Shown: positions 25,685 to 57,900 of the stretch, in pieces
Numbering within the stretch: the stretch's first letter is position 1
Layout of the letters: the number at the start of each line of letters is the position of its first letter
Assembly (NCBI GenBank): GCA_963715985.1
Contig: CAVQSP010000013.1
Span: 256,001 to 320,000 of the forward strand
Source of the DNA: an uncultured Thermoleophilia bacterium
Lineage (GTDB): Bacteria; Actinomycetota; Thermoleophilia; UBA2241
Direction: 5' to 3'
Length of the DNA stretch: 64,000 bases
Made by a program: the position numbers and the translations under genes
The notes under the pieces: model-generated
The model's input: only the letters and a program-made list of their open reading frames with translations
Told to the model about the DNA's origin: nothing
Database searches by the model: none

Positions 25685-25763
25685 CGTTCCTCCCCGGTGT
25701 GAAGTGGTCATCCGTGCCGTACTTCTCCACGCCACCGGCAACCCAAACGGACGGGAGGCGCGC

Positions 25764-26405: not shown

Positions 26406-26582
26406 AGCACGGGCCCCGGGCGGCATGTGGTTTGCGCCCGGGCGGCGCGAAGTTTGCCGATGAATGCACCGTGGCCTCGGCTGGGGCGGTCCGTGATACT
26501 TGACGCCAGAGCCGGGGCCCGGGCTGTGCACGCTCTGCGGACAGCCCGGGCCCCGGCGTCCACGTCCGCCCAGGGGGAGCGC

Positions 26583-28061
26583 ATGAGCACGGAGACCTCG
26601 ACCACGGCGGGCGCCGGCCTCAAGCGGGCCCGCGTCCGTGTCGTCACCGTCTTCTTCATGATCTACATCCTCGTGTCCGGCGGCTCGTTCGGCATCGAGG
26701 ACATGGTGTCGTCATCAGGGCCCGGGCTCACGCTGCTGCTGCTCATCCTGCTGCCCGTGTTCTGGAGCCTGCCCATGGCCCTCATCGCCAGCGAGCTGGG
26801 CTCGGCGCTGCCCGGGGAGGGCGGCTTCTACGTGTGGGCGCGGCGCGCGCTCGGCGACTTCTGGGGCTTCCAGACGGCCTGGTGGTGGTCGCTGTCCATC
26901 TTCGTGGATTCATCCGTCTACGTGGTCCTCGGCGTGACGTACCTGCAGAACTGGCTCGGCTTCGGGCAACTGTGGTTCTACGTGATCTGCTGGGCCGTCA
27001 TCGCCGTCTTCACCGTGGTCAACATCGTCGGGGTCAAGGTGGTGGCGCTGGGATCGACGCTGTTCTCCATCCTGATCCTGGCGCCGTTCGTGGTGCTCAT
27101 CGTCGTCGGTCTGGCGAAGTGGCAGTTCGACCCGTTCACGCCGGTCACCGCCCCCGGCGTGCCGTTCTTCGGCACCGGCGGCGTGTTCGCCCTGGGCCTC
27201 GCCATCGGTGTGTGGATGTACTCGGGGTACGAGTCCATGTCCACGCTCTCGGGGGAGATCCGCGAACCCCAGCGGGTGATCCCTCGCGCGCTGATGCTGG
27301 CGGTGCCCTTCATCATCGTGATGTACGTGCTGCCGACCATGGCCAGCCTCGCCGCCTACGGCCACTGGGACACGTTCGCCACGGTCGCCGGCGACGGCTA
27401 CCTTTCGTTCGTCGAGATCGGCAAGAAGCTCGGCGGGTCGGCTCTCGGCGTCGCCCTGCTGGCCTCGGCTCTGCTCGGCAACCTGGCCCTGTACCTGGAC
27501 TACCTGGCCTCCGGCGCCCGTCCGCTGTTCGCGATCTCCGCGGACGGGCTGTTCCCGCGGTCGATCTCGCGGGTGAGCAAGCGGTTCGGCACGCCCGTGG
27601 CGGCGATCCTGCTGATGGCCGCGCTCAACGCCGTCCTGATCGTCGGTCCGTTCCAGAACCTCGTGGTGATCGACGTCATCCTCTTCATCTCGGCGTACGT
27701 GCTGATCTTCGTCTCGGCGGTCCGGCTGCGCGTCAAGGAGCCGGACCTCAAACGTCCGTTCCGCGTGCCGCTCGGCACCACCGGCATGACGCTCATGGTG
27801 ATCCCGCCCATCGCCATCGTGGCCTTCACGATCTACGTCAACGCCATCGACCGCAGCACCGAGATCTTCGGGCTCACCGGGTTCAGCGTGGGAGGCTTCA
27901 ACGTGGGCTGGTACGGGATCGCCGGCTTCGCGGCGCTGCTCTCGGGCCCGGTGCTGTACTACGTCTTCCGGGCCCTGTACGGTGGCCCGCGGAGCCCGTC
28001 GTCGGAGGCGGGCGACGAGGCCGTCGCCCTGGCGGAGGCCGAGGCGCGGGAGGCCGTCTGA
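26583..28061 (+). CDS. APC-family amino acid/polyamine permease
   Basis: GGSFGIED, ELGSALP, WMYSGYE, LRVKEPDLKRPFRVP; TGATG coupling to the next gene. Confidence 0.9.
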   Translation: MSTETSTTAGAGLKRARVRVVTVFFMIYILVSGGSFGIEDMVSSSGPGLTLLLLILLPVFWSLPMALIASELGSALPGEGGFYVWARRALGDFWGFQTAWWWSLSIFVDSSVYVVLGVTYLQNWLGFGQLWFYVICWAVIAVFTVVNIVGVKVVALGSTLFSILILAPFVVLIVVGLAKWQFDPFTPVTAPGVPFFGTGGVFALGLAIGVWMYSGYESMSTLSGEIREPQRVIPRALMLAVPFIIVMYVLPTMASLAAYGHWDTFATVAGDGYLSFVEIGKKLGGSALGVALLASALLGNLALYLDYLASGARPLFAISADGLFPRSISRVSKRFGTPVAAILLMAALNAVLIVGPFQNLVVIDVILFISAYVLIFVSAVRLRVKEPDLKRPFRVPLGTTGMTLMVIPPIAIVAFTIYVNAIDRSTEIFGLTGFSVGGFNVGWYGIAGFAALLSGPVLYYVFRALYGGPRSPSSEAGDEAVALAEAEAREAV

Positions 28062-29494
28062 TGGAGCTCAGCGTCCGTGTCCTCTCCGAGGACGAGAAGG
28101 CGCAGATCCACGAGCGCACGCTGCGGGTGCTGCACTCCACCGGCGTGCGCTGCGATACCGCCGAGGGGCGCCGCCTCCTGGCGGCGGCCGGCGCCCAGGT
28201 GGACGAGGCCACTCGCATGGTGCGCTTCCCGCCCGAGCTCGTGGAGAGCCTTCTCGCCCAAGCCACGCGCCGTTTCACCCTGCACGGGCGCCGTCCGGAC
28301 TGGAGCTTCTCCGTCAACGACGGCGCCTTCACGCTGCTCGCCGACGGCGGGGCCACGGCCGTGTTCGACACGCAGACCGGCGAGCGCCGCCCCACCACGC
28401 ATCACGACTGGCTCGCTGCCACGCGCGTCCTGGACGCGCTCGACGACGTGGGTCTGTACTGGTGCCCCATCGAGTACGACGCCGACTACGAGCGCGCCGG
28501 CGGTCTCGTGCGCTACTTCACCGACGTCTTCGCCACGTTCGGCAAGCACGTGCAGGATTCGTTCGGCACGCCCGCGCTGGCGCCGTGGCTCAAGGAAGTG
28601 CTGGACATCGTGTTCGGCGGGCGCGAGGCGGTGCGCGAGCGCCTGCCCTTCTCGTTCCTCATCACGCCGGCGTCGCCGCTCACCATCGAGCACGACTACA
28701 CGCAGTCGTGGCTGGAGCTCAGGGACTACGGCCTGCCCGTGGCCGTCATGCCCATGCCGCTGCAGGGCGCCACGGCGCCCGGCAGCCGCCTCGGCACGCT
28801 GCTCGCGGCCAACTGCGAGACGGTGGCCACGCTCTGCCTCGTGCAGGCGGCGGCGCCGGGCACGCCGGTGTTCTACGCGCCGGTGGTGGCCACCATGGAC
28901 CCGCGCACCGGCCTGTACGCGGCGGGCGCCATCGAGCACGCCGTGCTCTGCGTGGCCGCCACGGAGATGGCGCGCTACTACGGCCTGCCGGCCGAGTCGT
29001 CCGGCCTCTGCACGCAGACCTGGGAGCCGGGCATCCAGACGGCGTGGGAGAAGGCCGACAGCGGCCTGCTGGTCGCGCTCGCCGGACCCGACGTGCTCGT
29101 CGGCCCGGGTCTGCTCGGCGGCGCCACCGTGCTCTGCCTCGAGCAGATCGTGCTGGACGTGGAGGTCATGCGCCGGGCCCGTCAGGGGCGCACCGGCGTC
29201 CCCGTGCGCGACGATCTGTGGCTCGACGACGTCCTCGCGGAGGTGGGCCCCTGCGGCTCCTTCCTGGGGCAACGGTCCACGCGCACCGGCCTGCGCTCCG
29301 GCGAGTGGTGGCTGAGCGACTTCGGCGTACAGGGCAGCTGGGACGCGTGGAAGGCGGCGGGTGCGCCGGACGCGGTCGCCGCCGCCCACGAGCGTGTGCA
29401 AGGCCTGCTCGACACGCAGGTCTCCCTGCCCTTCACCGACGACCAGACCAGGGCGCTCGCCGCGCTGCAGCGCCGCGCCGACCTGGCCGGCTGA
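28061..29494 (+). CDS. MttB-superfamily methyltransferase without pyrrolysine (MtgB-like)
   Basis: LSEDEKAQIHERTLRVL, SPLT, GATAP, MDPRTG, ARYYGLP; the Pyl-equivalent region reads SSGLCTQT with no amber codon. Confidence 0.88.
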   Translation: MELSVRVLSEDEKAQIHERTLRVLHSTGVRCDTAEGRRLLAAAGAQVDEATRMVRFPPELVESLLAQATRRFTLHGRRPDWSFSVNDGAFTLLADGGATAVFDTQTGERRPTTHHDWLAATRVLDALDDVGLYWCPIEYDADYERAGGLVRYFTDVFATFGKHVQDSFGTPALAPWLKEVLDIVFGGREAVRERLPFSFLITPASPLTIEHDYTQSWLELRDYGLPVAVMPMPLQGATAPGSRLGTLLAANCETVATLCLVQAAAPGTPVFYAPVVATMDPRTGLYAAGAIEHAVLCVAATEMARYYGLPAESSGLCTQTWEPGIQTAWEKADSGLLVALAGPDVLVGPGLLGGATVLCLEQIVLDVEVMRRARQGRTGVPVRDDLWLDDVLAEVGPCGSFLGQRSTRTGLRSGEWWLSDFGVQGSWDAWKAAGAPDAVAAAHERVQGLLDTQVSLPFTDDQTRALAALQRRADLAG

Positions 29495-29791
29495 CGCGGC
29501 GCCACCGCATGGGCGGCGGCCCAGAACGCCCCGCTGCCGCTTGCCGGGCCCCGGCGGCCCGGTCACTCTGCGCCGGCCGCTTCTGCGCGTTCGGACGAGC
29601 GTCCGAAAGCCGCCGCATGGAACCACGCTAATCGTATCTGTTTGGACAATTCTCTACGAATACAGCAGCACGTTGTGCAATCTGACACCGTACTCGTGGC
29701 ACTCTGCCTCACACATCGGAGTATCGTTCCCGGGTCGTGATGAGGAACGCCGGCGGCTGTGGGGCCGCCCGGCCGCCGCTGAGGGGTGCCG

Positions 29792-31243
29792 ATGTCTGAG
29801 CTGATCGCCGACCTGAAGAGCGCGGGTCTCGAGCGCGTCGACATGAAGGTGTGGACCGCGGTGTTCGTGGTCTTCTCGTTCGTGTGTTCCGGCGGCTTCG
29901 GGATCGAGGACATGGTCTCGGGAGCGGGCCCCGGCTTCGCTCTCCTGCTGCTCCTCATCCTGCCGTTCGTGTGGGGCTTGCCGCAGGCGCTCGTGTGCTC
30001 CGAGCTCGGCTCCGCCCTGCCCGAGGACGGCGGCCTGTACCGCTGGTCGCGCCGCGCCAACGGCGAGTTCATGGGGTTCCAGACCGGCTGGTGGTGGCTG
30101 CTCTCCATCTTCGTGGACTCGGCCGTCTACATCGCCCTCACCGCCGACTACATGCAGAACTGGTTCGGCTTCAGCGACGCAGTGCGCTGGGGCATCGCCG
30201 TGGTGCTCATCGCGGTCTTCGCCTACATCAACATCCGCGGTCTGCAGCTGGCCGCCTGGGTGCTCGTGATCATGCAGATCCTCGTGTTCATCCCGTTCGC
30301 GGCGCTGGCCGTGATAGGTCTCGCCAACTGGCATCACGATCCGTTCAGCCCCATCCTGCTGTCCGGCAACTCGCTGATCGGCGGCGTGGGGGTCGCGCTC
30401 AGCGTGGGCATCTGGATGTACTCGGGCTTCGAGTCGCTCTCCACGATGGCCGGGGAGATCAAGCGCCCGCAGTACGTGATCCCGCGGGCGCTCATGATCA
30501 CGCTGCCCATCGTGCTCGGCTTCTACGTGCTCTCCACGATGGGCGGCCTCGCCAGCGTCGGGCAGTTCAGCCGCTGGGCCACCGAGGGCAGCACGGCTCT
30601 CGACTTCATGGGCGTGGGCCGGGAGGTGGGCGGCGAGGTGCTGCGCTACCTCTTCTTCGCCGCCATGCTGGCCGGCAACTTCGCCCTCTTCCTCGCCTTC
30701 CTGGCGGCGGGCGCGCGCCCGGCCTTCGTGCTCTCCCGCGACAAGCTGTTCCCCAGGTTCCTCGGCAGGACCAGCAAGAAGTTCGGCACGCCGTACGCGG
30801 CGATCATCCTCATGGCGGTCGTGGACGCCGTGCTCGTGCGCTGGGGCTTCGCGACGCTGATCGTGATCGACGTCTTCCTACTCATGCTGGCCCACATCAC
30901 GATCTACATCTCGGCCGTGCGGCTGCGCGTCAAGGAGCCCGACCTGCCGAGGCCCTTCCGGGTGCCGGTGGGGACGCTGGGCCTCACGCTGATCAGCGCC
31001 GTTCCCATCTGCGTGGCGGTGCTCGCCATGTCTCCGTTCGGCAACGGCTGGGACTACTTCATCGGCGGGTGCGTCGCGGCGCTCACCGGGCCGCCGGCGT
31101 ACTTGATCTTCCGCGGCATCTACGGCGGCAAGAAGGCGCTGGAGGCGGAGGAGCGAGCAGGCCGAGAGGTCGCCGGCGCGACTCCGCCGGCGACCTCCGC
31201 AGGTGGGCGGGCCGCCGGTGCCACCGAGCAGGCGGTGGGCTGA
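29792..31243 (+). CDS. APC-family amino acid/polyamine permease, paralog of 26583-28061
   Basis: GGFGIEDMVS, ELGSALPEDGG, WWWLLSIFVDS, LRVKEPDLPRPFRVP. Confidence 0.9.
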   Translation: MSELIADLKSAGLERVDMKVWTAVFVVFSFVCSGGFGIEDMVSGAGPGFALLLLLILPFVWGLPQALVCSELGSALPEDGGLYRWSRRANGEFMGFQTGWWWLLSIFVDSAVYIALTADYMQNWFGFSDAVRWGIAVVLIAVFAYINIRGLQLAAWVLVIMQILVFIPFAALAVIGLANWHHDPFSPILLSGNSLIGGVGVALSVGIWMYSGFESLSTMAGEIKRPQYVIPRALMITLPIVLGFYVLSTMGGLASVGQFSRWATEGSTALDFMGVGREVGGEVLRYLFFAAMLAGNFALFLAFLAAGARPAFVLSRDKLFPRFLGRTSKKFGTPYAAIILMAVVDAVLVRWGFATLIVIDVFLLMLAHITIYISAVRLRVKEPDLPRPFRVPVGTLGLTLISAVPICVAVLAMSPFGNGWDYFIGGCVAALTGPPAYLIFRGIYGGKKALEAEERAGREVAGATPPATSAGGRAAGATEQAVG

Positions 31244-42371: not shown

Positions 42372-43688
42372 TCAGCGTTCGGCCAGCGTGGAGAGGTACG
42401 TGCTCAGGCGCGGGCCACCCTTGGGCAGCCCCAGCTTGCGGCGGATGCCGGCGCGGTGGAACGAGACGGCCGAGCGCGACACGTGCAGCGCCTCGGCGAT
42501 CTCGGCGCTCGTCTTGCCGAGGCGCACCAGGTTGGCCACCTCGCGCTCGCGGCGCGTGAGCGGCTCGGCACCGTCTCCGGGGTAGCGCAGGTGCTGCCCG
42601 AAGGGGCCTACGATCTCGCGCAAGTTCACGCGCATCGCCTCGAGCTCGAGGCGCTCCGGGCGGTGGCGCAGGGTCTTGCTGAGGCGCTCGATCGTGGGCT
42701 CCAGGAGCTGTTCCACGTTGTTCACGATGCGCTGCTCAAGCTCGCGGTTGTCTTGCTCACGCTGCTCCAACAGCACGCGCAGGGCGGTGTTGCGCTCGTC
42801 GAGGATCGTCGCCTGCCGGCGCAGGGCGCGCTCGGAGCGGGCCAGCTCGTCCTGCATGGCCTTCTGCTGCGTGATGTCGGTGCCCAGGAGGAAGTGCCCT
42901 CGCTGCCCCTCGATGTGGCAAGGGATGACGGTAAGGAGGAGACTCTTCTTCTCGCCGCGCACGTCGCACTCCACCTCCAGCTCGACGGTGTCGTCGGCGT
43001 CGGCGCGGCCTCCGGCGACGAGGGCCGTCACCGCGGCGGGGAAGTCGTCCTGCACCGCCGCCTCCAGCATCTCCTCCCGCGAGCGGCGGAAGAACGACAG
43101 TGCCTGCTGGTCGGCGTCCACGTACGCACCGCGTGCGTCCACCTGCATGGCCGGGCTGGGCAGGCGGAAGAGCACGCTGCGGAGCTCCTCCACTTCGCGG
43201 GCCATGTCGCCGGCTCGCACCTCGTGAGTGACGTCGCGCATGGCGCCGATCATGCTGGCCGGTCTGCCGCCGCGCCCCCTGAGCAGCACGCCCTGGTCGC
43301 TGAACACCAGCCAGTACCCGTCGGCGTGCTGCAGCCGGTACTCGGCGCGGAACGGCTCGTCGTTCTCGATGCTGCGCGCGAGGGCCTCCATCGTCCCCTC
43401 GCGGTCGTCGAGATGGATGCGGCCGAGCCAGCCCTCGATGCTACGCGGAAAGTCGCCGGGCAGCAGCCCCAGCTCCGTGTCGATCTGCTCCGACATGGAG
43501 ACGGCGCCGGACTCGATGTCCCAGTCATACAACACCTCGGAGGTCACGCGCAGAAAGGCCTGCAGGCGCGGGTCCCGACCTGTGATCGGCTGCTTTGGCC
43601 TGTCGGCAGCACTCTCGTCCCGGCCTGCATCGGGGTCGCGGCCGGGGAGGACCCGGCGCAGCGCGGGTGGGATTCTGATACTAGGCAT
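42372..43688 (-). CDS. PAS-PAS-LuxR transcriptional regulator
   Basis: PAS/PAC (EYRLQHADG, GAMRDVT, TDITQQK), coiled coil ERNTALRVLL, HTH LTRREREVA...FHRAGIRRKLGL. Confidence 0.9.
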   Translation of the reverse strand: MPSIRIPPALRRVLPGRDPDAGRDESAADRPKQPITGRDPRLQAFLRVTSEVLYDWDIESGAVSMSEQIDTELGLLPGDFPRSIEGWLGRIHLDDREGTMEALARSIENDEPFRAEYRLQHADGYWLVFSDQGVLLRGRGGRPASMIGAMRDVTHEVRAGDMAREVEELRSVLFRLPSPAMQVDARGAYVDADQQALSFFRRSREEMLEAAVQDDFPAAVTALVAGGRADADDTVELEVECDVRGEKKSLLLTVIPCHIEGQRGHFLLGTDITQQKAMQDELARSERALRRQATILDERNTALRVLLEQREQDNRELEQRIVNNVEQLLEPTIERLSKTLRHRPERLELEAMRVNLREIVGPFGQHLRYPGDGAEPLTRREREVANLVRLGKTSAEIAEALHVSRSAVSFHRAGIRRKLGLPKGGPRLSTYLSTLAER

Positions 43689-44224: not shown

Positions 44225-45913
44225 ATGGGGGTAGCCGTGGCAACGGAACCTGAGCACCACCGCCACATGTTCCACGACGAAGCCGACGCGCAGCACAAGC
44301 GCGACACGGAGCAGCTCGCCAAGTTCGGCTACAAGCAGGACCTGCGGCGCTCCCTCGGCTTCTTCTCCACCTTCGCTATCGCGTTCAGCTTCATCTCGGC
44401 GACCAACGGCTTCTACGCGCTCTTCTACTACGGCCTCGACATCGGCGGCCCCGCCGGCCTCATCTGGCAGTGGCCGATCATCGTCTTCGGCCAGTTCATG
44501 GTCGCGCTGGTGTTCGCTGAGGCGGCCTCGCACTATCCGCTGGCCGGCGGCATCTACCAGTGGGGCAAGCGCTTCATGGGCGGCGACTACGGCTGGTGGG
44601 TCGCCTGGGTCTTCGCCACAGCGCTCGTCGTAACGGTCGCGGCCGTCGCCTTCGGTGTGGCGCCGATCGTCTGCGCGCTCATGGGCTGGGATGCGAGCAA
44701 CACGACGACGCTGCTCTGGATCGCGGTCTGCTTCGCCGTGGGGCCGATGATCTTGAACGTCCTCAGCGTCAAGGTCACGGCCTTCTTCAACAACATCGGG
44801 ACCGTCACCGAGATCATCGGGCTCGTGGTGATCTCTATCGCGCTGTACGCCGCCGTCATCTTCGGCAAGGGCGATCACCAGAGCCTGAGCGTGCTGTTCG
44901 ACACGACGCCGGGCGCCGGAGCAGGCGCTCTCTTCGGCTACGGCAGCATCTTCCTTGCCTCGATGCTCACCGGCGCCTGGGTGTTGTACGGCTTCGATAC
45001 CGCCGGGGGACTCGCGGAAGAGACGATCAACCCGACCCGTGAGGTACCTCGCGCCATGCTGTTCGCGATCGGCATCACCGCGGTCATCAGCGCCTTCTGG
45101 CTGCTGGCGATGGTCCTCGCCATCCCGGGCGTCGCCGAGACGCAGGCGCAGGGGACGGGGGCGATCGCGTACATCTTCGACGCGCACTTCCCGACCTGGG
45201 TCACGGACACCTTCCTGGTCACCGTGTGCATCGCCATCTTCGTCTGCTGCCTGGCTATCCAGGCGGCGACGTCGCGGCTGCTGTTCGCCTTCGGCCGCGA
45301 CAAGATGATCCCCGCGTCCAAGTTCTTCGGCTACGTGCATCCGAGCACCAAGACCCCGCTGGCGTCGGCGATCTTCGTCGCCGTGGCGGCGATCGTCGTG
45401 CTGCTGTACGTGAACCTCGGCGGCAGCGACCCGTTCATCGCCATCGCGCGCGTCACCGCCTGGGCCACGGCCGGCACCTACATCGCCTACCAGATGGTGG
45501 TCTTCGGCGGGCTCATCGCGCGAGGCCGGGGCTGGCCAAAGGACAGGGCCTACTTCAACCTGGGCAAGTGGGGCTGGCCGGTCAACATCCTCGCCCTCGT
45601 CTACGGCGTCTTCATGATCATCAACCTGGTGTGGCCGCGGACGCCTGACGCCGCGTGGTACGACAACTACCTCGTCGTCGTCTCCCTGGTCGTCGTGGTC
45701 ATCGTCGGCGCCATCATCTATGTGATCCAGAAGGCCCGCGGTGTCGACCTCAGCGCGACCATCCACGAGATCGACGAGTCTCCGGCGGCAGCCGTGGCCG
45801 CCGAGGCCATGACTGCCGGCGAGGCGGGGAGGATGTTGGACACCGACGTCGGAACAGAGATGCAGCAGATGTCCGCCGACGACGATCCTGCGAAGGGAGG
45901 GACCACTCCGTAG
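44225..45913 (+). CDS. Amino acid/amine permease (GabP/ACT-like APC)
   Basis: FGYKQDLRRSL, FAIAFSFIS, YPLAGGIYQW, YGFD...AEET; TAG stop. Confidence 0.92.
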   Translation: MGVAVATEPEHHRHMFHDEADAQHKRDTEQLAKFGYKQDLRRSLGFFSTFAIAFSFISATNGFYALFYYGLDIGGPAGLIWQWPIIVFGQFMVALVFAEAASHYPLAGGIYQWGKRFMGGDYGWWVAWVFATALVVTVAAVAFGVAPIVCALMGWDASNTTTLLWIAVCFAVGPMILNVLSVKVTAFFNNIGTVTEIIGLVVISIALYAAVIFGKGDHQSLSVLFDTTPGAGAGALFGYGSIFLASMLTGAWVLYGFDTAGGLAEETINPTREVPRAMLFAIGITAVISAFWLLAMVLAIPGVAETQAQGTGAIAYIFDAHFPTWVTDTFLVTVCIAIFVCCLAIQAATSRLLFAFGRDKMIPASKFFGYVHPSTKTPLASAIFVAVAAIVVLLYVNLGGSDPFIAIARVTAWATAGTYIAYQMVVFGGLIARGRGWPKDRAYFNLGKWGWPVNILALVYGVFMIINLVWPRTPDAAWYDNYLVVVSLVVVVIVGAIIYVIQKARGVDLSATIHEIDESPAAAVAAEAMTAGEAGRMLDTDVGTEMQQMSADDDPAKGGTTP

Positions 45914-46986: not shown

Positions 46987-47032
46987 CTCCGGTGCCGTGT
47001 GGCGCCGCTTGTGGCCGGCGCCTCCTCTCTGC

Positions 47033-47284
47033 CTACACCACGCCCGTCGCCTTGAGGTAGATCACCAGGCCGAGGACTGCGAGCAGGATCACGAGCGTGA
47101 TGATGCGCTGCGTGCTCCAGCGGGCGCGAGGTGGCCGCGGCGCCTTCCAGCTCGGTCCGTCGCCTTTCTCATGGAGCTGGTCCGCGGAGAGGTACAGGTG
47201 GTCGCCGCCGCCCATGGGCGGCTGCCCGAGTGTGCCCCTGTTGGGGTGAGAGTCCTTCTCGTCCGGCGGTGGGGTGCCGGTCAT
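47033..47284 (-). CDS. Small membrane protein
   Basis: 83 aa with a C-terminal TM; GAGGAG RBS; TAG stop. Confidence 0.6.
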   Translation of the reverse strand: MTGTPPPDEKDSHPNRGTLGQPPMGGGDHLYLSADQLHEKGDGPSWKAPRPPRARWSTQRIITLVILLAVLGLVIYLKATGVV

Positions 47285-47307
47285 CGTGTCTCCTCGGGTC
47301 GTGGCGC

Positions 47308-48589
47308 TCAGACGCGCTCGTCGAACCAGAGCACCGGTGGGAACGGTCGCAGGCAGTGCGGGTGCCAGTTGGCCTGGCAGTAGCAGCCCACGCCGAGCAT
47401 GGCCACGATGTCGCCCTCCTCGAGGGGCGGCAGCGCGTAGTCCTCAGCGAAGAGGTCGGGACCCTCGTTGATGTGGCTGGAGAGGGTGTAGCGGGCCGTG
47501 CGCGGAGCATCAGCCGCACGGCACAGCACGGTCTCGATGGCCTCGCGGTAGACGAACCACAGGTGTACGAGGTTCCAGCCGCAGGTGAGGCCGGCGAAGA
47601 CAGCGCTGCCGTCGCCGGCCAGGCTGCGGTCCTCGACCGTGACCACCTCGGCGAGCGCCACGGCCGCGTTCTTGACGAGCGACTCGCCGGGCTCGCAGGC
47701 GATCGTCACGCCCAGCGGGCCGAACTGCTCGGCGAGGATGCCTGCATACGCGTCCAGGTCGAGCGGCCGCTGTCCCTGCTGCATCACGGCGGCGAGGCCA
47801 CCGCCGGCATTGACCTCGCGGATGGGGCAGCCGGCGTCCATGGCGCGCCGCGCCATGGACGGCCACCGCCGCGGCCGCCTCGCGAAACGCCGGCAGATCG
47901 TCGTCGAGCAGGTGGTGGCTCACGTGGAAGTGGATGGTGTCCACCGTCAGGTCGTGTTCGCGCGCGACGGCGAGGGCCTCGTCCAGCCGCTCCGGGTAGA
48001 TGCCGAACTTGGTCGGCTTGTCGCCGCTGTAGTAGCTGATGCCGCCGTCGGGGTGGACGGCGCTTCGGCGGGGGTTCACGCGCAGCCCGATCGTGCCGCC
48101 GCGGTCCCGCCGCCCGTATCGGCGGATCTGGCTGATGAGGTCCAGGTTGATGTGCACGCCGTGAGCGAGGATGACGTCGAGGTCCTGGTCGCTCACGTTG
48201 GTGCCGGTGTAGCTGATCTCGGAGGCCGGCCAGCCCTGCTCCAGGCCGTACTGCACCTCGCCGGGGGAGCAGACGTCGAGGCCGACGAACTCCGGGGTGC
48301 CGGGCATGCCGATGCCGTGGACGCGCGCCAGCGCGCGGGGCTCGCGCTGCGCCTTGACGGCCCAGCGCACCTTCCAGGGCAGTCCGGTGCGTGCCATCGC
48401 GCCCTGCAGGGCGCGTACGTTCTCCTCCATGTGCGTGAGGTCGTACACGAACAGCGGCGTGCCCTGCTCGCGCGCCAGCTGTTCCGCGTCACGCCCGGCG
48501 ATCAGAAGTCGCCCATCCCTGACGTCGAGGCCCGGCCGCCGCCACCAGTCACACGGCTGGACTGTGACGGTCTGCGGGTCGTCGGACAT
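47308..48589 (-). CDS. PLP-dependent Orn/DAP/Arg decarboxylase family (LysA-like); frameshift near 47860
   Basis: [12 protein letters not shown] (PLP lysine), SPGE, GLRVNP, TKFGI, HFH in frame 1; NAGGG, EPG, NEGPD in frame 2. Confidence 0.8.
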
Positions 48590-48798
48590 GGGGTGACTCC
48601 TTTCTCGCGACGCCGGCGCGCTCTGCCGGCCGCGCACGAGTCTCTCGCGTGGCGGGTCGCGGGCAACCGGCGGCCGCGACCGGGATACGGCCGCGCGGGT
48701 TTCATGGTGCCTCGAGGCGGGGCAGAATCGCGGGCGACGGCGCCGCCTTGCGGCGCGACACGCTCCACACTGCGAGCCCACGAACGGGGAGGCCCGGC

Positions 48799-50502: not shown

Positions 50503-50671
50503 GCCGCAAGGGTGACGGGCGCGGCGGCGCGGCGCAAGCCGCCGCACCGCGCCGCCGCGCCTCGGCCTCACGCCCGCACCGCGCTCCGGGACCGGCGTCC
50601 GGTGGCGTCGCGCCCGCCCGGTGTGATTACCTTGGCCCACTCCGTGGACTTCGCCCAGAGGGAGGCAGGGC

Positions 50672-52141
50672 GTGAAACGCAATCTGTTCGCCGGCCAGCG
50701 CCGCAGCGGCGGTATCGGCCTTTCAATGTTCACCGACGACGAGATCCACATGATCCACCGTGGCACGCTCGTCGTCCTCGAGCGCACCGGCATCTGGGTC
50801 GAGCTCGACGAGGCGCTGGACATCTTCAGCGACGGCGGCTGCAAGGTCGACCGCGAGACGCACATCGTCAAGATCCCCCCGCACGTGGTGGAGGACGCCG
50901 TCGCCAGCGCCCCCGAGTCCATCGCGCTGTGTGGCCGCGACCCGAGGAACGACATCCTCATCGAGGCGGGGCGCGTGGGCTTCAGCAACTTCGGCGAGGG
51001 CATCAAGGTCATCGACCCCACCAGCGGCGAGCTGCGCGACTCCACGAAGAAGGACCTCGGCGACATCGCCCGGCTGGTCGACGCCCTGCCGGACATCGAC
51101 GTCTTCGAGATGGCCGTGGTCTCCGGCGACAAGCCCCCGGAGACGTTCTCGCTGCACAACCACGAGGCGGCCATCGTCAATCAGACGAAGCCCATCTCCG
51201 GCGGGGCGCAGGACGGCCGCGCCGTGCACACTACGGTGGAGATGCTGGCCGCCGTGCAGGGCAGCGAGGACGCCGTGCGCGAGCGGCCGATGATGATCAT
51301 GGGCACCTGCCCCGTGAGCCCGCTCAAGCTGGTCAAGGACTTCTGCGAGATCATCATCGAGGCGGCGCGCGTGGGCCTGCCCTCCTGCGTGCTCAGTATG
51401 GCCATGGCCGGCGGCTCGTCGCCGGTCACGCTGGCCGGCACGCTGGTGACGCACAACGCCGAGGTGCTCGCCGGCATCGTGCTCGGCCAGCTCACCGAGC
51501 GCGGCAGCAAGGTGCTCTACGGCTCGTCCACCACGGCTATGGACCTGCGGCTGGTCACTGCCTCCGTCGGCTCGCCGGAGTGCGCCATGATCAGCGCCGG
51601 TGCGGCCCAGCTCGCCCGACAGTACCGCCTTCCGAGTTACATCGCGGGGATGTAGGGCGACGGCAAGACCAGTGACGTGCAGACCGGTCACGAGAAGACC
51701 CTCACGGCTCTGATGGCGGCGTTGGCAGGGACCAACCTCATCTACGGGTCGGGAATGATCGAGTCGGGCGTCACCTTCGATTTCGCGCAACTGGTCATCG
51801 ACGACGAGATCGCGCGCATGGTCAAGCAGGTGGTCGGCGGCGTGCGCGTGGACGACGAGTCGCTGGCGGTGGACGACATCGCGAGCGTGGGCTCGTTCGG
51901 CGACTTCCTCAGTCTGGACGCGACGATGGCGCACATGCGCGAGCAGTCGCAGCCGCGGCTCATGGACCGGCGCGTGCGCGAGGAGTGGGAGGAGGGCGGC
52001 AGCCTGGGCATGTACGACAAGGCCCTGGCCAAGGCCCGCGACCTGCTCGAGAACCACCACCCGGAGCCGCTGCCCGACGACGTGCGGCAGCGGGTCCGCG
52101 ACATCGTGGAGCGCGAGGACAGGGCGGCCGGCAGGGCCTGA
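50672..52141 (+). CDS. mttB: Trimethylamine--corrinoid methyltransferase with pyrrolysine (in-frame TAG at 51653-51655, codon 328; 489 aa)
   Basis: ORFs 50672-51655 and 51677-52141 are in the same frame; LPSYIAGM*GDGKTSDVQTGHEKTLT matches the MttB Pyl motif; CPVSPL, SPVTLAG, YGSSTT, IYGSGMIE. Confidence 0.93.
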
Positions 52142-52215
52142 CGGGCGTCCCCGGTCCGGACGCGACGCGGGCGGGGCGGCTCTCCCGGCCGCCGCCCGCG
52201 GCGCGTTCCGCCTCC

Positions 52216-53296
52216 TCATTCCCTCTCGTCGATCCAGCCGGTGACGACGAATCTGTCGCCGGGCACGATGTCCCTGCCGCTCCATGAAGATCCATGAAGG
52301 CGTGGCAGGTGAGGCCGGCGTACGCGCCCGACCCCTTCGCCACGGCGTACTGGAAGTGCTCGAGCGCGGCCCGTGCCACGCACACCGTCGAACGCGGCGC
52401 ACTCCCACGCGCCGTCTGCGTTCGTCATGGGTCCAGGAGCCGCCGTAGTCGATACTGCCGTCGGGCGCGGGGGGCCGCCCTCCTCGACGACCTCTGCTTC
52501 CAGGTGGCCGTTCACGCGCGGGTCCGACTGGTCGAGGTTCCAAGCCCATGAGTAGGTCGTCGTACCCCGCGCGGCTGTCGGTCGTGATGCCGACGACGGG
52601 CGTCCAGACCCGGGGGCGTCGTCCCCGGCCCGGGGGCCGGCGGCACCGGGCTCCCGTCGGTAGTCTCGATCCACCCGGCACCACTCGATCTGGATGTCGG
52701 GCGTGAAGCCCTGGCCGGCCTCCACGAACCAGCCGGTTCATCGCGGCCTTGAGGCCGGCGTAGCCGCCGGTCCCCTGTCACCGCGAGACGCACGTGGTGC
52801 TCGTCGCCGCCGGCGGCGATGCCCCCCGTCCATCTGCCGACCCAGGTGCCGCCCTCGTTGGTGATCCGGCACGGTGCCCCAGAGCGTCGCGCTCATGTCG
52901 GTCTGCCGCTGGTCCATGTTGACGATGACGTCGTACCGCCCGCTCAGGCGCGGGTCGGAGCTCTCCTGCCGGAACACCCACTCGGCGCGGCGCGTCTGCA
53001 TCGTGTCCCGTCGACCATCTTCTCGCTCTGGTAGGGTCCGTGATAGTCGACCAGGGCTTGCGTGAAGACGAACGGCAGCATGCCGCGGAACTCGCTAACC
53101 GCTACCGGGACCTGCGCTGCGGCCGGTACCTGTAACGCGGGCGCAGATTCGACCGCCGTCGGCCCTGGCGCCGCCGTCGATGCCGCCTGCGAGTTCGCCC
53201 CGTCGCAGGCCGCCACACCGGCCGCACCCGCGACCGTGAGCAGCAGGCACAGTGCAGAGCACGCACGCTCGACCAGAGACTCTCGTGTGACATCAT
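52216..53296 (-). CDS. Putative lipoprotein with two internal repeats; several frameshifts (error or pseudogene)
   Basis: Lipobox-like GVAAC; repeats SDPRLSG..TNEGGTW and SDPRVNG..MTNADGAW..GSGAYAGL spread across frames. Confidence 0.5.
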
Positions 53297-53336
53297 CCGT
53301 CCTCCCTCTGTCGGTGGGGATGCTCTCTCGCCCACG

Positions 53337-53369
53337 CAGACAGACCGGGCAAGGGCCGTTGTTTCTTCG
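53337..53369 (-). promoter_or_regulatory. Putative ECF sigma promoter, copy 1
   Basis: CGAAGAAAC-aacGGCCCTTgccc-GGTCTgTCTG upstream of the lipoprotein gene; near-identical to 55604-55635. Confidence 0.6.
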
Positions 53370-53429
53370 CGTGCCAGTCGTTGGAGCCCCGAGAGGACGC
53401 GGGGAGGACGTGGGGTCCGGCGCTCGCGG

Positions 53430-54886
53430 CGTGAGGTGCTTCCGGCGACGCTGTCGCCCGAGTAGGTCCTGCAACGAGTCCGCGATCCGCGAGAAGCTCC
53501 TGCGCCGAGGCGCCGCCGGCGATCGTCAGCAGGACACCGTCCTTGACCGCCCAGAGGTGCGGCGTGGAGGACGTGGTGGCCACGACGATGCTCGCCGTGG
53601 CGCCGGCGAAGGCGCCCGATGTGATGGGGCGCTCGGTGCGCACCAAGGCGGTCCAGGCGGGATTGTAGGAGTCAACCGGGTCTTCGGTCGCCGCGTAGTA
53701 CGGGTCGGCGAGGGTGCGGGTGGAGACGGTGAGGGCGTCGAACCCGTGCGTGTACTGCAGCTCGAAGATATGGCGCGGCCCTGGACGAGGTGGTTGGTGG
53801 TCAGCGCCCGTGGGCGCGACGGCGAGCGTGCGGCCAGGCGAAAGCCGGCCGGGGCACGAAGCCGGGCACGAGCGGCGTCATCGCCGGTGAAGCCCGCCCG
53901 CCTCCTCGAGAGGAGATGCGCCGGAAGCCCGCGTCGCTTGCGCCGGAGCGTCTCGCCCCGCCGGCGCCCCACCGTGAAGGCGCCGGCTGGCAGCGGCTCG
54001 TTGTAACGGACGTCCAGGTAGTGCAGGTCGGCGATGAGCACCCCTGCAGTCGATCTCATGGAAGCGGACGGGGAGCCACGTCCGTTTGTCGATCGGTCAC
54101 CTCGTACACCGGCCAGTCCACGGAGGTGGCCGGAGCTGGCGAGCTCGGCGACCTGTCCCCTTTCGTGCAGGTCACGGTCCAGGCCGGCCGGCCGTCCATC
54201 ATCGGCGTCGTCGAGGGTGAAGGCGCCGGACGCCTGCATCGCGCGCCCGGAGGTCCCGAGGTCGACAGCCGGTCAGCGGGTCGGCGACCGCGTCCGGCGG
54301 TCCGAGCGGGACGTTCCGCGTCACGGTGAGCCCGCGTCCCGGACGATAGTGCCGGAGGACGCCGGCTCGAGGCGTCGTAGGCCACGGACGTCGGTCGCCG
54401 TAGCCGTCGCCGGGGCGATAGCCGTCGCGCGGCGGGTCCGCCCGAGCTGCGTCAGGCGGTAGCTGCCGTCGGCGCTCTGCAGCATGCGGTACCGGAAGTA
54501 GTCGTAGTGGAAGCCGACCAGAGATGCGGTTCCAGTCGAGGCGCCTTGAGCGTGACGTCCGCCTGCCAGGTGCGGCCGGACGAGGAGGCGGCGGGCGTCC
54601 GCCTGACGACGTCGGCGGCGTCGACCGTCTGGGGCCCGACGGGTCTGCGGCAGGCCGAAGAGGACGGCCGCCGCGGCGGCGGCGGCGAGCGCGGCCGCGA
54701 CAACCGCGATGCGCAGGGGCGGCGCGGTCAGGGCGGCGCGCAGGCGGCCGAGGAACGTCCGGCGCGCGATCACGTCGGCGCCGCCGCGGCGATCGCGGCG
54801 CGGATCGCTCCCAGTAGTCCGGCGCGTGCTCCGGTCCGCGAGGACTCGAGCTGCTGGCCGAGCTCCCTGTCGCGGATCTCCTCCAT
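53430..54886 (-). CDS. Putative anti-sigma factor (TM + LolA/RseB-like domain); many frameshifts; end approximate
   Basis: TGATG coupling to the ECF sigma; MEEIRDRELGQQL, TM VVAAALAAAAAAAVLFG, NEPLPAGAFT, LTIAGGASAQELL. Confidence 0.55.
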
Positions 54887-55581
54887 CACTCCCCCTCGAC
54901 GTAGAGAGATGGCCTCAGGTGGCGGCGCAGAGACGCGCGAGCCGCGGACAGGCGCGAGGCCAGGGTCCCCGTGGGCACGCCGAGGATGTCGGCGGTCGTC
55001 GCGTAGTCGAAGCCCTCGCGGTCGACGAGCAGGACGGCCAGGCGCTGCTCGGGCGGCAGGGCCGCGAGCGCCTCCGCGAGCGCCTCGTGGACGGCGACCG
55101 TCTCGGCCGGGTCCAGATCGCAGTCGGCGGGCTCGGGCATCTGCTCAGGCGACAGCGGGACAAGCCGGCCGGATCTCGCGACGGCATCGCAGCAGGCGCG
55201 ATAGGTGATGCGGCACAGCCAGGTGCCCAGCGACGCCTCACCGCGAAAGCCGGCGAGCGAGCGGTACACCTTGAGTGCGACGTCCTGCATGACGTCGTCC
55301 ATCAGCTGGCGGTCGCCGAGAACGTGATAGGCGACGATGCGGAGACGGCGGTCGTAGTGGCGCATGACGTCGATGAACGCCGCGTCGTCGCCGGCCGCGG
55401 CCGCGGCGAGGACGCCCTGATCGATCTCCTCAGTCCTCTGCGCCCAGGCAGACACGCCCGCCCCTCCCTCCGGACGCTCGACCCGCTCAGGCGTGAGCGT
55501 ACCCCTACCGGACAGGCGCCGGCCCGTTGCGGCCCACATGACACGGGGCTGCGCGTCGGCTACGGCTGTCACTGTGAGCAT
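54886..55581 (-). CDS. ECF RNA polymerase sigma factor (alternative GTG start at 55455)
   Basis: GDDAAF, DDVMQD, FRGEASLGTWLCRI, LPPEQR...EGFDY...LGVPTGTLASRL. Confidence 0.9.
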   Translation of the reverse strand: MLTVTAVADAQPRVMWAATGRRLSGRGTLTPERVERPEGGAGVSAWAQRTEEIDQGVLAAAAAGDDAAFIDVMRHYDRRLRIVAYHVLGDRQLMDDVMQDVALKVYRSLAGFRGEASLGTWLCRITYRACCDAVARSGRLVPLSPEQMPEPADCDLDPAETVAVHEALAEALAALPPEQRLAVLLVDREGFDYATTADILGVPTGTLASRLSAARASLRRHLRPSLYVEGE

Positions 55582-55603
55582 GAAGCCGCTCCCTCCTCTC
55601 GGT

Positions 55604-55635
55604 CAGATAGACCGCAGAAGGGCCCGGTTTCTTCG
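55604..55635 (-). promoter_or_regulatory. Putative ECF sigma promoter, copy 2 (autoregulatory)
   Basis: CGAAGAAAC-cgGGCCCTTctgc-GGTCTaTCTG just upstream of the sigma gene RBS. Confidence 0.6.
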
Positions 55636-55708
55636 GTGGGAGGGAGGGATCCCCGGTGGGTGCCGGTGGACGGCGTCTCGCGGGACCGTGCTCAGGCGCG
55701 ATTCGGTT

Positions 55709-56392: not shown

Positions 56393-56514
56393 GAGAGCTC
56401 CCAGGTCGGTTTGTGCTGTGTGGTGCAAGTGTGGGGGCGGCGAGCGCGGCCGGTCAACCGGGCGCCGCGCCTGCTAGGATGAGGCCGGAGCTGCCGCGAC
56501 GAGAGGGGACGACG

Positions 56515-57900
56515 ATGGAGACCAGGGTGCCCACCCGCATGGGCGACGGGTTCATGGTCGAGATGACGCGCAGCGAGCTGCGCGCCGACATCGAAGCGGC
56601 CACGCAGGAGGCGGCGCGCAAGGCAAAGACGCCGCCGCTCGCCGCCGCCGAGCAGGAGCACCTGCTGGACATCTACGCCTCGCGGGCCGCCTTCACCGCC
56701 GTGGACATCGGCGACCAGGTGGTGCTGAGCTGCGACGGCGGCGGCAGCAAGATGACCGGCACCGACATCCAGGACCTGCTGGAGAGCGAGCAGCGGCTGG
56801 GCCAGGACATCCTCGAGCTCTGGCACATCGAGTACAGCTACAAGGCCATCAAGACGATCCTGCCGTTCCAGCAGCAGGTGATGCAGAACGCCCAGCTGAT
56901 GCTGACGGCGCCCATCCAGTACGGGGCGCAGCCCAATCTCGCCTTCTACAGCCGGCCGGACGGCCCGTGCCCCAACTGGTTCGAACTGCTGCCGCGCGGC
57001 GACATCGCCGGGTCACGCGCGGCCGTGGAAGAAGCCATGGAATACGCGACGCAGGACTTCGTGTACGTCGCCGACGGCATGCTCGAGGCCGGCGCCGACG
57101 GCGTGGACTTCGACACCACCGGCGGCGCCGGCGACGCCGATCTCTTCAGCACGCTGCGTGCCGTGCGCCACGTGCGCGAGCGGTACCCGGAGGCCGGCAT
57201 CGAATTGGGCATGGCCGGCGAGTTCGTCATCGGCGTGCACGGCGAGCTCACCTGGGAGGGCACCCGGCTCGCCGGCATGTGGCCGCGGCAGCAGCTCGAG
57301 GTGGCGCAGGACGCCGGCGTCACCATCTTCGGGCCGGCGGTCAACATCCGCAGCGGGCGCTCGTGCTGCTGGAACACGGCCTACTCGCTCACGGTCATCA
57401 AGCCGTGCATGGAGGTGGCTCGCATCCCCGTCCACGTCAACGTGGGGGAGGGCGTGTGCGGCGTCCCCGTCAACGGGTATCCGGGGGAGGACGCCGTCTC
57501 GCGGGCGGCCAAGGCACACGTCGACATCCTGCGCTGCGACGGCTTGTAGGTGGGGTCGGGTGACTCCAGAGGCATGGACGTCACTCACGCGCTCGCCGCG
57601 GGCATGGGCGGCATGCGCACGGCCGGAGACCTGGTCGCGCGCCTGCAGATGTCACGCGGGATGCGGCTCGAGGAGGCGAAGCGGACCGTGGCCGGCAAGC
57701 TCGGCTGCACGGTCCGCGACCTCAGCGACAGCTACGCCATGGAGCAGCTGCGCGGCGAGCTGGGCCTGGGGCGGATCCTCGACCACTCCAATCTGCACCC
57801 CGGCAAGCCGAACGCGATGAGCGCCAAGTTCCGCATCGCCGAGCTGCTCGGCCTGCGGATCAACTCGGTGGAGCGCTTTCGGGAGCTGGCGGGGCTGTAG
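56515..57900 (+). CDS. mtbB: Dimethylamine--corrinoid methyltransferase with pyrrolysine (in-frame TAG at 57547-57549, codon 345; 461 aa)
   Basis: TRMGDG, YSYKAIK, YGAQPNL, DFDTTGGAGDAD, GMAGEFVIG, RIPVHVN; CDGL*VGSGD...GMGGMRTAGDLVAR matches the MtbB Pyl motif; ORF 57550-57900 is in frame. Confidence 0.93.

Follow-up and report, generated by a model that had tools for sequence, protein, structure and literature searches.

Is the in-frame UAG that divides a trimethylamine methyltransferase gene (mttB) of an uncultured Thermoleophilia (Actinomycetota) bacterium translated as pyrrolysine (Pyl), or does it mark a broken gene? The gene lies in a stretch of 64,000 nucleotides (hereafter the window), carried by a 676 kb contig (C13) of a genome with 70% GC. 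An initial annotation of the window, made from its letters, had taken the UAG for a Pyl codon. We have followed up this proposal by comparing the gene with its relatives, by searching the source genome for the Pyl machinery and for other uses of UAG, and by examining the RNA downstream of the codon. As detailed below, the locus is very probably one mttB gene, with Pyl inserted at codon 328 (UAG), in a Thermoleophilia host that makes Pyl itself.

The mttB gene and its in-frame UAG

The sequence reads exactly as the initial annotation had described it, i.e. one TAG stands between two ORFs in the same frame, which together encode a full-length MttB of 489 amino acids when the UAG is counted as Pyl (Table 1). 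The frame opens with a GTG, which lies 6 nt downstream of a GGGAGG that may function in ribosome binding, stays open for 327 codons before the TAG, and resumes after it until the TGA at 52139-52141, giving the read-through context PSYIAGM-O-GDGKTSDVQTGHEK. The joined product matches the Pfam MTTB profile (PF06253) over residues 18-484 (profile positions 32-497 of 500; 314 bits, E 1.4e-93), and since it thereby forms a single full-length domain, the joining of the two ORFs is not due to chance. The match to the Methanosarcina MttB (PDB 7xcl and 7xcm, 'Trimethylamine methyltransferase') extends over residues 2-485 with 397 bits, and in this alignment the TAG falls opposite the X that denotes Pyl in 7xcl, as the initial annotation had anticipated for a Pyl-MttB reference, and opposite K in the variant 7xcm. 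The product is thus predicted to be a trimethylamine:corrinoid methyltransferase.

Table 1. Features of the window (positions counted from its first letter)
Feature	Position	Strand	Basis or remark
mttB, Pyl-type trimethylamine:corrinoid methyltransferase (predicted)	50672..52141	+	Pfam MTTB and PDB 7xcm/7xcl matches
Shine-Dalgarno-like GGGAGG	50660..50665	+	direct reading of the sequence
In-frame UAG, mttB codon 328 (very probably Pyl)	51653..51655	+	opposite X of 7xcl
Rfam RF02510 PYLIS_3 match	51653..51752	+	sequence level only; 60.8 bits vs gathering score 38
Hairpin GUUGG-CAGGGA-CCAAC	51721..51736	+	conserved; stem 51721-51725 with 51732-51736
mtbB, Pyl-type dimethylamine methyltransferase	56413..57900	+	Pfam Dimeth_Pyl 504.9 bits, residues 40-491
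In-frame UAG (Pyl codon) of mtbB	57547..57549	+	same column in 11/11 TAG-bearing MtbB matches of the genome
Non-Pyl MttB-superfamily paralog	28040..29479	+	Pfam MTTB 216 bits; no in-frame stop
APC-family amino-acid permease, just 5' of the non-Pyl MttB	26427..28061	+	Pfam AA_permease_2 162 bits
APC-family permease, 3' of the non-Pyl MttB	29786..31243	+	Pfam AA_permease_2 164 bits
APC-family permease, 4.8 kb 5' of mttB	44225..45913	+	Pfam AA_permease_2 162.6 bits
PAS-LuxR (GerE) transcription regulator	42372..43688	-	Pfam PAS_3, PAS_4, GerE

Pyrrolysine machinery on the same contig

The genes that the initial annotation had named for a search, i.e. pylT with a CUA anticodon, pylSn, pylSc and pylBCD, were all found on contig C13, ~244 kb downstream of mttB, with pylB frameshifted in the deposited assembly. 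Because mttB, the pyl cluster and prfA share this contig, binning error is not an issue. PylSc (TIGR02367, 316 bits vs a cut-off of 178), PylSn (TIGR03912, 124.6 vs 51), PylC (TIGR03909, 318 vs 248) and PylD (TIGR03911, 199.5 vs 150) all score above their cut-offs. The tRNA-Pyl was located by ARAGORN at C13:555126-555198, and folds into the atypical cloverleaf, in which a single base separates the acceptor stem from the D stem, the D loop measures 5 nt and the variable region 2 nt; a search of the pyl cluster with Rfam returned no RNA-family match at E <= 0.01, and the assignment of this tRNA rests on ARAGORN and on the fold. The usual order of the bacterial cluster is pylT-Sc-B-C-D-Sn; here it is pylB-pylC-pylD-pylT, followed 1.1 kb on by pylSn, then by a gene for a corrinoid protein, and then by pylSc on the opposite strand.

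PylB is matched in two frames, with 305 and 126 bits, each below the 348-bit cut-off, owing to a single inserted A at C13:552671 relative to three intact genes of the same genus. Taken literally, this break would mean that the strain carries a Pyl-type mttB but cannot make Pyl, and that it either produces only a truncated MttB or obtains Pyl from its neighbours. We consider this improbable. The pylB gene is intact in three of five same-genus genomes, and the breaks of the two split copies do not coincide (profile positions 214/216 and 194), a pattern that noise in the assemblies would produce. Furthermore, the extra A is missing in X1 (depth 11.2/11.2) and X3 (7.4/7.4), the only sequencing runs with metagenome contigs that bridge the site, and loose ends in X3 and X4 carry the same in-frame variant; these frame-restoring contigs come from other samples and from strains 97-99% identical, which are not demonstrably the same population. 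Finally, some 17 intact Pyl genes would not persist in a strain without Pyl.

UAG as both stop and probable pyrrolysine codon

Given a full set of Pyl genes, UAG might have been reassigned to Pyl throughout the genome, like the archaeal code in which all TAG codons mean Pyl (cited in PMC13695967), but this is highly improbable here. Release factor 1 (RF1) is present with 480 bits, above its cut-off, and TAG closes 314 of the 1744 long ORFs with a coding signature (~18%), including secY, rpsB, dapB, hisA and tatA; UAG is therefore in dual use. The genome has 57 pairs of ORFs that are joined by a TAG and show a coding signature. The known mttB, mtbB and mtmB genes account for 17 of them, and of the other 40 pairs, 20 were examined for new Pyl proteins; in 19 of these no Pfam domain spans the TAG. 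Pairs of this latter kind are separate genes, e.g. secY/adk, rpsB/tsf and dapB/dapA. The single pair with a domain across the TAG, AcnX, was rejected as a new Pyl protein: nine relatives have GAG or GAC at the site and none of 17 relative matches has a stop, which makes the TAG a private change or an error.

Conservation of the UAG

In a first set of 43 related loci, TAG occupies the identical codon of mttB in 38; of the remaining five, four are non-Pyl homologs at 32-36% identity and one (L108) is garbled at this point. In a later set, drawn from several phyla, all 62 Pyl-type mttB loci have it. Within the source genome, TAG stands at the Pyl column of the respective family in 10 of the 11 TAG-bearing MttB matches, in every TAG-bearing MtbB match (Table 1) and in both TAG-bearing MtmB matches, and the coding signature of mttB (GC3 0.95) runs unbroken across its TAG. 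A reading of the TAG as nonsense mutation or sequencing error, with mttB as a pseudogene or two fragments, might be argued from the many indel-type breaks of the assembly, from the pylB break, the split copies of MttB and MtbB and the private TAG in AcnX, and from a decarboxylase 5' of mttB that is split over two frames, but the TAG is a substitution-type feature that sits exactly on the Pyl column, and its conservation contradicts this reading, the chance of which we take to be negligible. The position of the TAG, its conservation, and the pyl genes and tRNA-Pyl(CUA) on the same contig together support the earlier proposal that this organism uses the 22nd amino acid.

Neighbouring genes and genome repertoire

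The source genome contains at least 17 apparently intact TAG-containing genes of this kind (at least seven mttB, eight mtbB and two mtmB), one of which, an mtbB, lies within the window. Judged by the N-termini of its paralogs, this mtbB probably starts at the ATG at 56515 rather than at the ORF start at 56413; a match to Rfam PYLIS_2 (57547-57646) begins at its UAG. Many non-Pyl paralogs of the MttB superfamily are also found in the window and in the genome, and the one listed in Table 1 (row C13:284073) has Cys at the Pyl column. An adjoining gene for a corrinoid protein (MttC) is usual, though not obligatory, for Pyl-type MttB. No ORF for such a B12-binding protein was found beside mttB or mtbB in the window; about 20 corrinoid genes lie elsewhere in the genome, and some of the other methyltransferase copies have one adjoining. 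The 44-60 kb compositional profile of the window revealed no island. The source genome is a draft, 88.8% complete with 7.29% contamination, and is clearly indel-prone. Twenty-four sequencing runs matched positions 50600-58000 of the window, none of them listed as RNA, and the best share of query words was 0.47.

A conserved hairpin downstream of the mttB UAG

Although the region starting at the mttB UAG scores above the gathering threshold of PYLIS_3 at the sequence level (Table 1), several of the pairs in the model are non-canonical in this gene. The 100 nt at the UAG have a minimum free energy of -28.6, while shuffled versions average -33.8 (z +1.43), i.e. the native sequence folds no better than they do, and the Rfam PYLIS structure, a small hairpin excepted, was supported neither by folding nor by RNAalifold on 19 sequences. 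We presume that the Rfam mttB model (RF02510) was built mainly from archaeal sequences.

The hairpin that stands apart from this result has a stem of 5 bp and occupies nucleotides 69-84, where the U of UAG is nucleotide 1. It overlaps the mttB codons Ala-Leu(TTG)-Ala(GCA)-Gly-Thr-Asn, and among bacterial Pyl-type mttB genes its site shows the lowest synonymous variability of the whole gene. In the covariation analysis 95.9% of cells were paired, three of the five pairs had changed on both sides, and the hairpin was confined to Pyl-type paralogs. It is not visible in the Rfam mttB consensus. A scan of mtbB for synonymous constraint, based on eight paralogs that are all of high GC, was uninformative, with minima far from the UAG.

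The hairpin may be new. One possibility, which we put forward tentatively and with more doubt than belief, is that (G/A)UUGG-N6-CCAA(C/U) has a function at the RNA level peculiar to the Pyl-type mttB of bacteria, as a counterpart of the long-sought PYLIS that would mark the UAG apart from stops. Such an element might affect how efficiently the UAG is recoded, or it might control the mRNA. It lies too far from the UAG to be readily taken for a simple stimulator of ribosome pausing, and its mode of action would therefore be new.

Distribution in the lineage

The initial annotation had judged the genome to be of high GC and probably actinobacterial, and the closest mttB orthologs bear this out: at 77-88% identity, all of them come from metagenome-assembled genomes (MAGs) labelled Thermoleophilia, Actinomycetota or Actinomycetes. 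PylSc is above its cut-off in 23 of 24 relatives of the same genus and in 81 of 401 sampled genomes of the class, and within the family it was found in 72 of the 80 genomes sampled; in public genomes the Pyl trait is family-wide.

The nearest relatives outside the Actinomycetota are the Pyl-type MttB of Thermodesulfobacteriota (Desulfobacterales and others), at 53-60% identity. They share the TAG codon and the downstream hairpin with the present gene. In the phylogeny they group together (SH-aLRT 95), apart from the all-Actinomycetota clade that contains the window's MttB (support 100). The underlying phylogeny is a quick tree with SH-aLRT support and midpoint rooting, in which the long branches (L102, L105, L108 and some G000 paralogs) cannot be relied on; given its uncertain root, neither a donor nor a direction of transfer is assigned to mttB.

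Comparison with known systems

The present MttB resembles that of Methanosarcina in belonging to the same family over its full length, in having UAG/Pyl in the same column, and in keeping the motif LPSY(I/V)AG-x-O-(G/S)D(G/A)K around it. It differs in its bacterial host of high GC and in the lack of an adjoining corrinoid-protein gene; the methyl group here would presumably end on tetrahydrofolate rather than on coenzyme M. With the Pyl systems of Desulfitobacterium hafniense and the Olavius delta1 symbiont it shares the splitting of PylS into PylSn and PylSc and the many copies of mtbB and mttB, whereas the phylum and the order of the pyl genes are different and the intact repertoire is larger here. 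UAG is also described as a frequent stop in D. hafniense (PMC1976440), as it is in the present genome. The non-Pyl MttB superfamily (e.g. glycine betaine methyltransferase, PDB 9yce and 2qne) belongs to the same fold family (231 bits), but its members have no UAG and carry ordinary residues at the Pyl column, and they are reported to use quaternary amines, not trimethylamine (PMC10805028).

Within the phylum, excerpts of two papers mention Pyl: at Stordalen Mire, mttB and mtbB genes that encode Pyl are expressed in Actinobacteriota MAGs (PMC10805028), and a pyrrolysyl-tRNA synthetase is noted in 'two Actinobacteria' (PMC9630628). These are the same gene types in the same phylum as ours, while the excerpts describe no pyl cluster, tRNA-Pyl, repertoire size, lineage-wide distribution or cis element. 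The earlier suggestion that Pyl would be unusual in an actinobacterium is accordingly upheld as to the host and tempered as to the word 'unusual', in view of these two mentions and the family-wide trait. Genes of this kind are familiar, but little has been described of Pyl use in this lineage.

Proposed mechanism

The chemistry of Pyl, trimethylamine as the substrate of MttB and tetrahydrofolate as the later acceptor of the methyl group are established for this family and would apply here as well. In the host, the products of pylB, pylC and pylD would build Pyl from lysine, and the split synthetase, PylSn with PylSc, would charge tRNA-Pyl(CUA) with it. At the UAG of mttB, the charged tRNA would compete with RF1. 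The resulting full-length MttB would remove one methyl group of trimethylamine and hand it to a corrinoid protein whose gene lies at another place in the genome, and MtbB and MtmB, likewise Pyl enzymes, would perform the same transfer from dimethylamine and monomethylamine, respectively. With the three enzymes together, the cell should be able to strip all three methyl groups.

Significance

Standard annotation splits or drops mttB and about 20 other genes of this genome, a loss that hides a whole uncultured family of Actinomycetota, associated with wetlands and soils, that is apparently equipped for the demethylation of tri-, di- and monomethylamine. The lineage offers a natural test case for specific Pyl insertion in a bacterium that has RF1 and in which UAG is still a common stop, and the conserved hairpin provides a concrete, mutable object for the question of how such insertion is made selective. 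The hairpin occurs in a lineage that combines RF1 and many TAG stops with ~17 Pyl genes. In their habitats, Actinomycetota of this kind would compete with methylotrophic methanogens for the precursors of methane.

The mttB gene and its in-frame UAG codon

The mttB gene begins with a GTG codon at 50672, preceded by GGGAGG at 50660-50665 as read directly from the sequence, and runs for 327 codons up to a TAG at 51653-51655, after which the same frame continues to a TGA at 52139-52141. This agrees with the initial annotation, which had joined two same-frame ORFs across one TAG into a pyrrolysine (Pyl)-encoded trimethylamine methyltransferase. The read-through product has 489 residues, with the context PSYIAGM-O-GDGKTSDVQTGHEK, and makes up a single, full-length MTTB domain (PF06253 in Pfam; 314 bits; residues 18-484, profile positions 32-497 of 500). 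Among solved structures, it scores highest against the trimethylamine methyltransferase of Methanosarcina (397 bits for 7xcm and 395 for 7xcl, over residues 2-485), and the TAG codon falls opposite X of 7xcl and K of 7xcm, i.e. at the pyrrolysine site, where the initial annotation had placed it. In contrast, non-Pyl glycine betaine methyltransferase 9yce and 2qne reached 231 bits, far below these two entries.

A scan of species-representative genomes with the window MttB yielded 79 loci. In a first subset of 43, the aligned codon was TAG in 38; four of the others were non-Pyl homologs with 32-36% identity, and the fifth, L108, was garbled at the site, its translated context being unlike the family and its composition flagged. 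TAG was found in all members of a larger subset of 62, from which nine partial, multi-segment or frameshifted loci (L068, L091, L092, L094, L101, L103, L107, L108 and L112) and eight non-Pyl loci (L111 and L113-L119) were left out. Within the window's own genome, 11 of the 89 MTTB matches contain one TAG, located at the Pyl column in 10, and the Pyl column likewise holds TAG in all 11 TAG-bearing Dimeth_Pyl matches and both MtmB matches. A nonsense mutation or a base-call error at the mttB TAG cannot account for this pattern across loci and paralogs.

Pyl biosynthesis and decoding genes

The draft genome comprises 4.35 Mb in 22 contigs (70% GC, 88.8% complete, 7.29% contamination), and the window occupies C13:256001-320000 in it. 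The initial annotation had supposed that the organism uses the 22nd amino acid; pylT, pylSn, pylSc and pylBCD (pylB in two frames) were all located on the window's own contig, about 244 kb downstream of mttB (see table). In the cloverleaf of the tRNA, only one base separates the acceptor stem from the D stem; the D stem has 4 bp and closes a 5-nt loop, the anticodon loop reads CUCUAAA, the variable region is 2 nt long, and the gene encodes the GCCA end. These features are hallmarks of tRNA-Pyl. As Rfam gave no match at E <= 0.01 across the 18-kb pyl-cluster stretch, the tRNA-Pyl call is based on ARAGORN and the fold. In the contigs of four wetland-metagenome runs (X1-X4) compared with the pyl-cluster stretch of this contig (L011), the summed depth over the tRNA (L011 9088-9208) was 29-136, against about 7-17 in the flanks, in all four runs, with variant letters at 9139, 9151 and 9154, as if many related strains shared one tRNA. 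A B12-binding radical SAM protein is encoded between pylSn and the corrinoid gene of the cluster (L011 11242-12675, minus strand), and another at the window start (338-1966, minus strand).

Locations of Pyl-related and neighbouring features (C13, the 676-kb contig of the window; plain positions, window coordinates; L numbers, loci of the same genome)
Feature	Location	Details
mttB	50672-52141	
Hairpin GUUGG-CAGGGA-CCAAC	51721-51736	69-84 nt after the Pyl UAG
mtbB (dimethylamine methyltransferase)	56413-57900	Dimeth_Pyl 505 bits; TAG 57547-57549; Rfam PYLIS_2 match
LuxR-type regulator	25611-26405	upstream of non-Pyl MttB/permease stretch
Non-Pyl MttB	28040-29479	flanked by two APC permeases (whole stretch 26427-31243)
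pylB	C13:551817-553008	
pylC	C13:553005-554252	318 bits (cut-off 248)
pylD	C13:554249-555055	199.5 bits (cut-off 150)
tRNA-Pyl	C13:555126-555198	anticodon CUA
pylSn	C13:556301-556558	124.6 bits (cut-off 51)
Corrinoid protein gene	C13:558286-559041	
pylSc	C13:559325-560185	opposite strand; 316 bits (cut-off 178)
tatA-tatC	L132	housekeeping pair
secY-adk	L138	housekeeping pair
dapB-dapA	L140	housekeeping pair
rpsB-tsf	L141	housekeeping pair
hisA-hisF	L143	housekeeping pair

The pylB break and the quality of the assembly

The model for pylB hits this gene in two separate frames, with 305 and 126 bits. Compared with three intact same-genus genes (427-454 bits), its sole coding-region indel is one inserted A at L011 6671 (C13:552671). 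Two other same-genus assemblies, both of few contigs, also have a split pylB, but at differing profile positions, 214/216 and 194. When the Logan contigs of the four metagenome runs, which originate from other samples and are 95-99% identical to the assembly, were compared with L011:5700-9300, one letter was omitted at place 6670 in X1 (11.2 of 11.2 depth) and X3 (7.4 of 7.4); no contig bridged the site in X2 and X4, and loose contig ends in X3 and X4 gave the same in-frame variant. Since metagenome contigs omit the extra base, the likeliest source of the insertion is an error in the assembly or a private lesion, and pylB is probably intact in the population.

The assembly is indel-prone, and similar frame breaks are numerous elsewhere. 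The gene for a PLP-dependent decarboxylase that lies upstream of mttB is broken into two frames (47510-48781 and 47308-47856), a molybdopterin oxidoreductase domain starts mid-profile at 46603 (within 46146-48781), and many MttB and MtbB copies are adjacent fragments in different frames. Near-identical duplicates also occur on different contigs, i.e. rpsB-tsf (C14:804723-806786 and C20:57057-59117) and a 657+441-aa ORF pair (C2:4651-7950 and C15:167339-170638); these stretches may be strain variants or redundant contigs, and may explain part of the contamination estimate.

UAG as a stop and as a Pyl codon

The contig of the window encodes RF1 (TIGR00019, 480 bits, cut-off 423). A crude gene call, restricted to ORFs of 200 aa or more with GC3 >= 0.88 and GC1 > GC2 + 0.08, yielded 1744 ORFs ending in TAG (314), TGA (1381) or TAA (49), and about 17 of the TAG-ended ones are upstream halves of Pyl genes. 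Of the 57 same-frame ORF pairs that are joined by a TAG and carry a coding signature, 17 are mttB, mtbB and mtmB genes; among 20 taken from the other 40, no Pfam domain spans the TAG in 19, these 19 being neighbouring genes, including the housekeeping pairs of the table. Because RF1 is present, TAG stops are frequent and these 19 TAG-joined pairs are separate genes, UAG is both a normal stop and a Pyl codon in this genome. Such dual use is likewise reported for D. hafniense (PMC1976440), in contrast to an archaeal code in which every TAG is Pyl (mentioned in PMC13695967). Where a housekeeping gene ends in TAG and the next gene lies in frame, Pyl read-through would yield fusion proteins, an indication that Pyl decoding has to be restricted or regulated.

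In an aconitase X (AcnX) gene on another contig (C3:97349-98563, minus strand; L134), codon 256 is an in-frame TAG, and one Pfam domain extends across it. Its relatives have GAG or GAC at this site, none has a stop, and the next eight residues align poorly; the TAG is thus either a change private to this genome or an error in the local assembly, not a conserved Pyl site.

Taxonomic distribution

In keeping with the actinobacterial origin supposed by the initial annotation, the 13 loci with 77-88% identity to the window MttB all come from MAGs whose titles name Thermoleophilia, Actinomycetota or Actinomycetes; in the tier below, at 53-60% identity, more such MAGs occur together with Thermodesulfobacteriota. 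A quick maximum-likelihood tree of 61 rows (SH-aLRT support, midpoint root; long branches unreliable) places the window MttB within a 12-row all-Actinomycetota clade (support 100) and groups all 19 Thermodesulfobacteriota rows in a single clade (support 95); no transfer direction is readable from this midpoint-rooted tree. Seven paralogs of the genome fall in separate clades (six label changes). Most of these clades also contain orthologs from other MAGs of Thermoleophilia, which makes the duplications old.

Of 24 same-genus relatives, 23 have a PylSc match above the cut-off, as do 81 of the 401 genomes sampled from the class; the 401 include an unpublished one (G350) with no such match. The window's own family, 80 genomes counting that of the window, accounts for 72 of the 81, and two more members have partial PylSc matches at contig edges; the remaining nine belong to a second family (61 genomes), and none to other families.

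Conserved hairpin 3' of the mttB UAG

Rfam PYLIS_3 matches at the mttB UAG with 60.8 bits. Some pairs of the model's consensus are non-canonical in this sequence, and shuffled versions of the 100 nt fold better than the real one (z +1.43), so the match is treated as sequence similarity only. An alignment of 19 orthologs contains a near-invariant stretch, GCGTTGGCAGGnnCCAAC, which pairs into a 5-bp stem around a loop of 6 nt, a long way from the decoding site. Synonymous sites in this hairpin hardly vary among the Pyl-mttB genes of Thermoleophilia and Thermodesulfobacteriota, and the hairpin is not found in non-Pyl paralogs. In this GC-rich genome, eight of nine Pyl-type paralogs use the rare Leu codon TTG in it; the ninth has CTG and, in the other arm, AGC for AAC, keeping the pair. 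Leu occupies the position in 11 of 27 non-Pyl paralogs, with TTG in none.

Among 63 sequences (34 distinct), which are related and from which the structure itself was derived, 95.9% of hairpin cells are paired (reached by 0/500 shuffles; slid controls <= 53.5%), three of five pairs show both-side changes (7/500 shuffles), and the covariation score is 0.173 against 0.094 (0/500). The outermost pair consists of two synonymous third positions (G-C 24, A-U 5, G-U 1, unpaired 4). The codon-entropy minimum of the whole gene lies on the hairpin (0.64 bits, mean 1.41; 61 sequences, 305 informative codons), and the six lowest windows all overlap it. The parts of earlier PYLIS/mttB work seen (PMC3639795, PMC1976440) report no common structure for mttB and do not describe this hairpin.

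Methylamine gene repertoire and its meaning

The genome holds at least seven mttB, eight mtbB and two mtmB Pyl genes that are apparently intact in a single frame, several fragmented copies, and at least 27 near-full-length non-Pyl MttB paralogs. No corrinoid gene was found beside the window's mttB or mtbB; tblastn picked up corrinoid-protein-like sequence at 23 genomic places, with coverage of 150 aa or more at 20 of them, and at no place within the window. In a cluster on contig C14, mtmB (two copies), mtbB and mttB are each followed by their own B12-binding corrinoid protein, along with an APC permease, and on C4 mttB is followed by mtbB and an MFS transporter. In the 20-kb methylamine island on C14 (L164, C14:679001-699000), mtmB-mtmC occurs twice in nearly identical form, mtbB is split and accompanied by mtbC, and mttB and mttC lie on the other strand; the island further encodes the APC permease, a universal stress protein and a GAF histidine kinase. 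The window also encodes a third APC permease and LuxR-type regulators, and its 26427-31243 stretch looks like a putative quaternary-amine uptake and demethylation module.

The genome thus combines an mttB of the Pyl type, whose UAG is conserved, with a full set of pyl genes (pylB split in the assembly) and tRNA-Pyl on the same contig, and with corrinoid partners elsewhere. By analogy with the known family, Pyl would activate the methylamine, and the methyl group would pass to Co(I) of a corrinoid protein and then to a C1 carrier. In the publications consulted, PylRS genes in 'two Actinobacteria' (PMC9630628) and the expression of Pyl-encoding mttB and mtbB by some Actinobacteriota MAGs (PMC10805028) have been reported, so the gene type is not new and the window mttB is a further case; nothing else relevant appeared for Actinobacteriota or Actinomycetota, and nothing on topic for pyrrolysine or mttB in Thermoleophilia. 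Relative to the literature consulted, the additions are the family-wide distribution of Pyl, the size of the repertoire and the hairpin.
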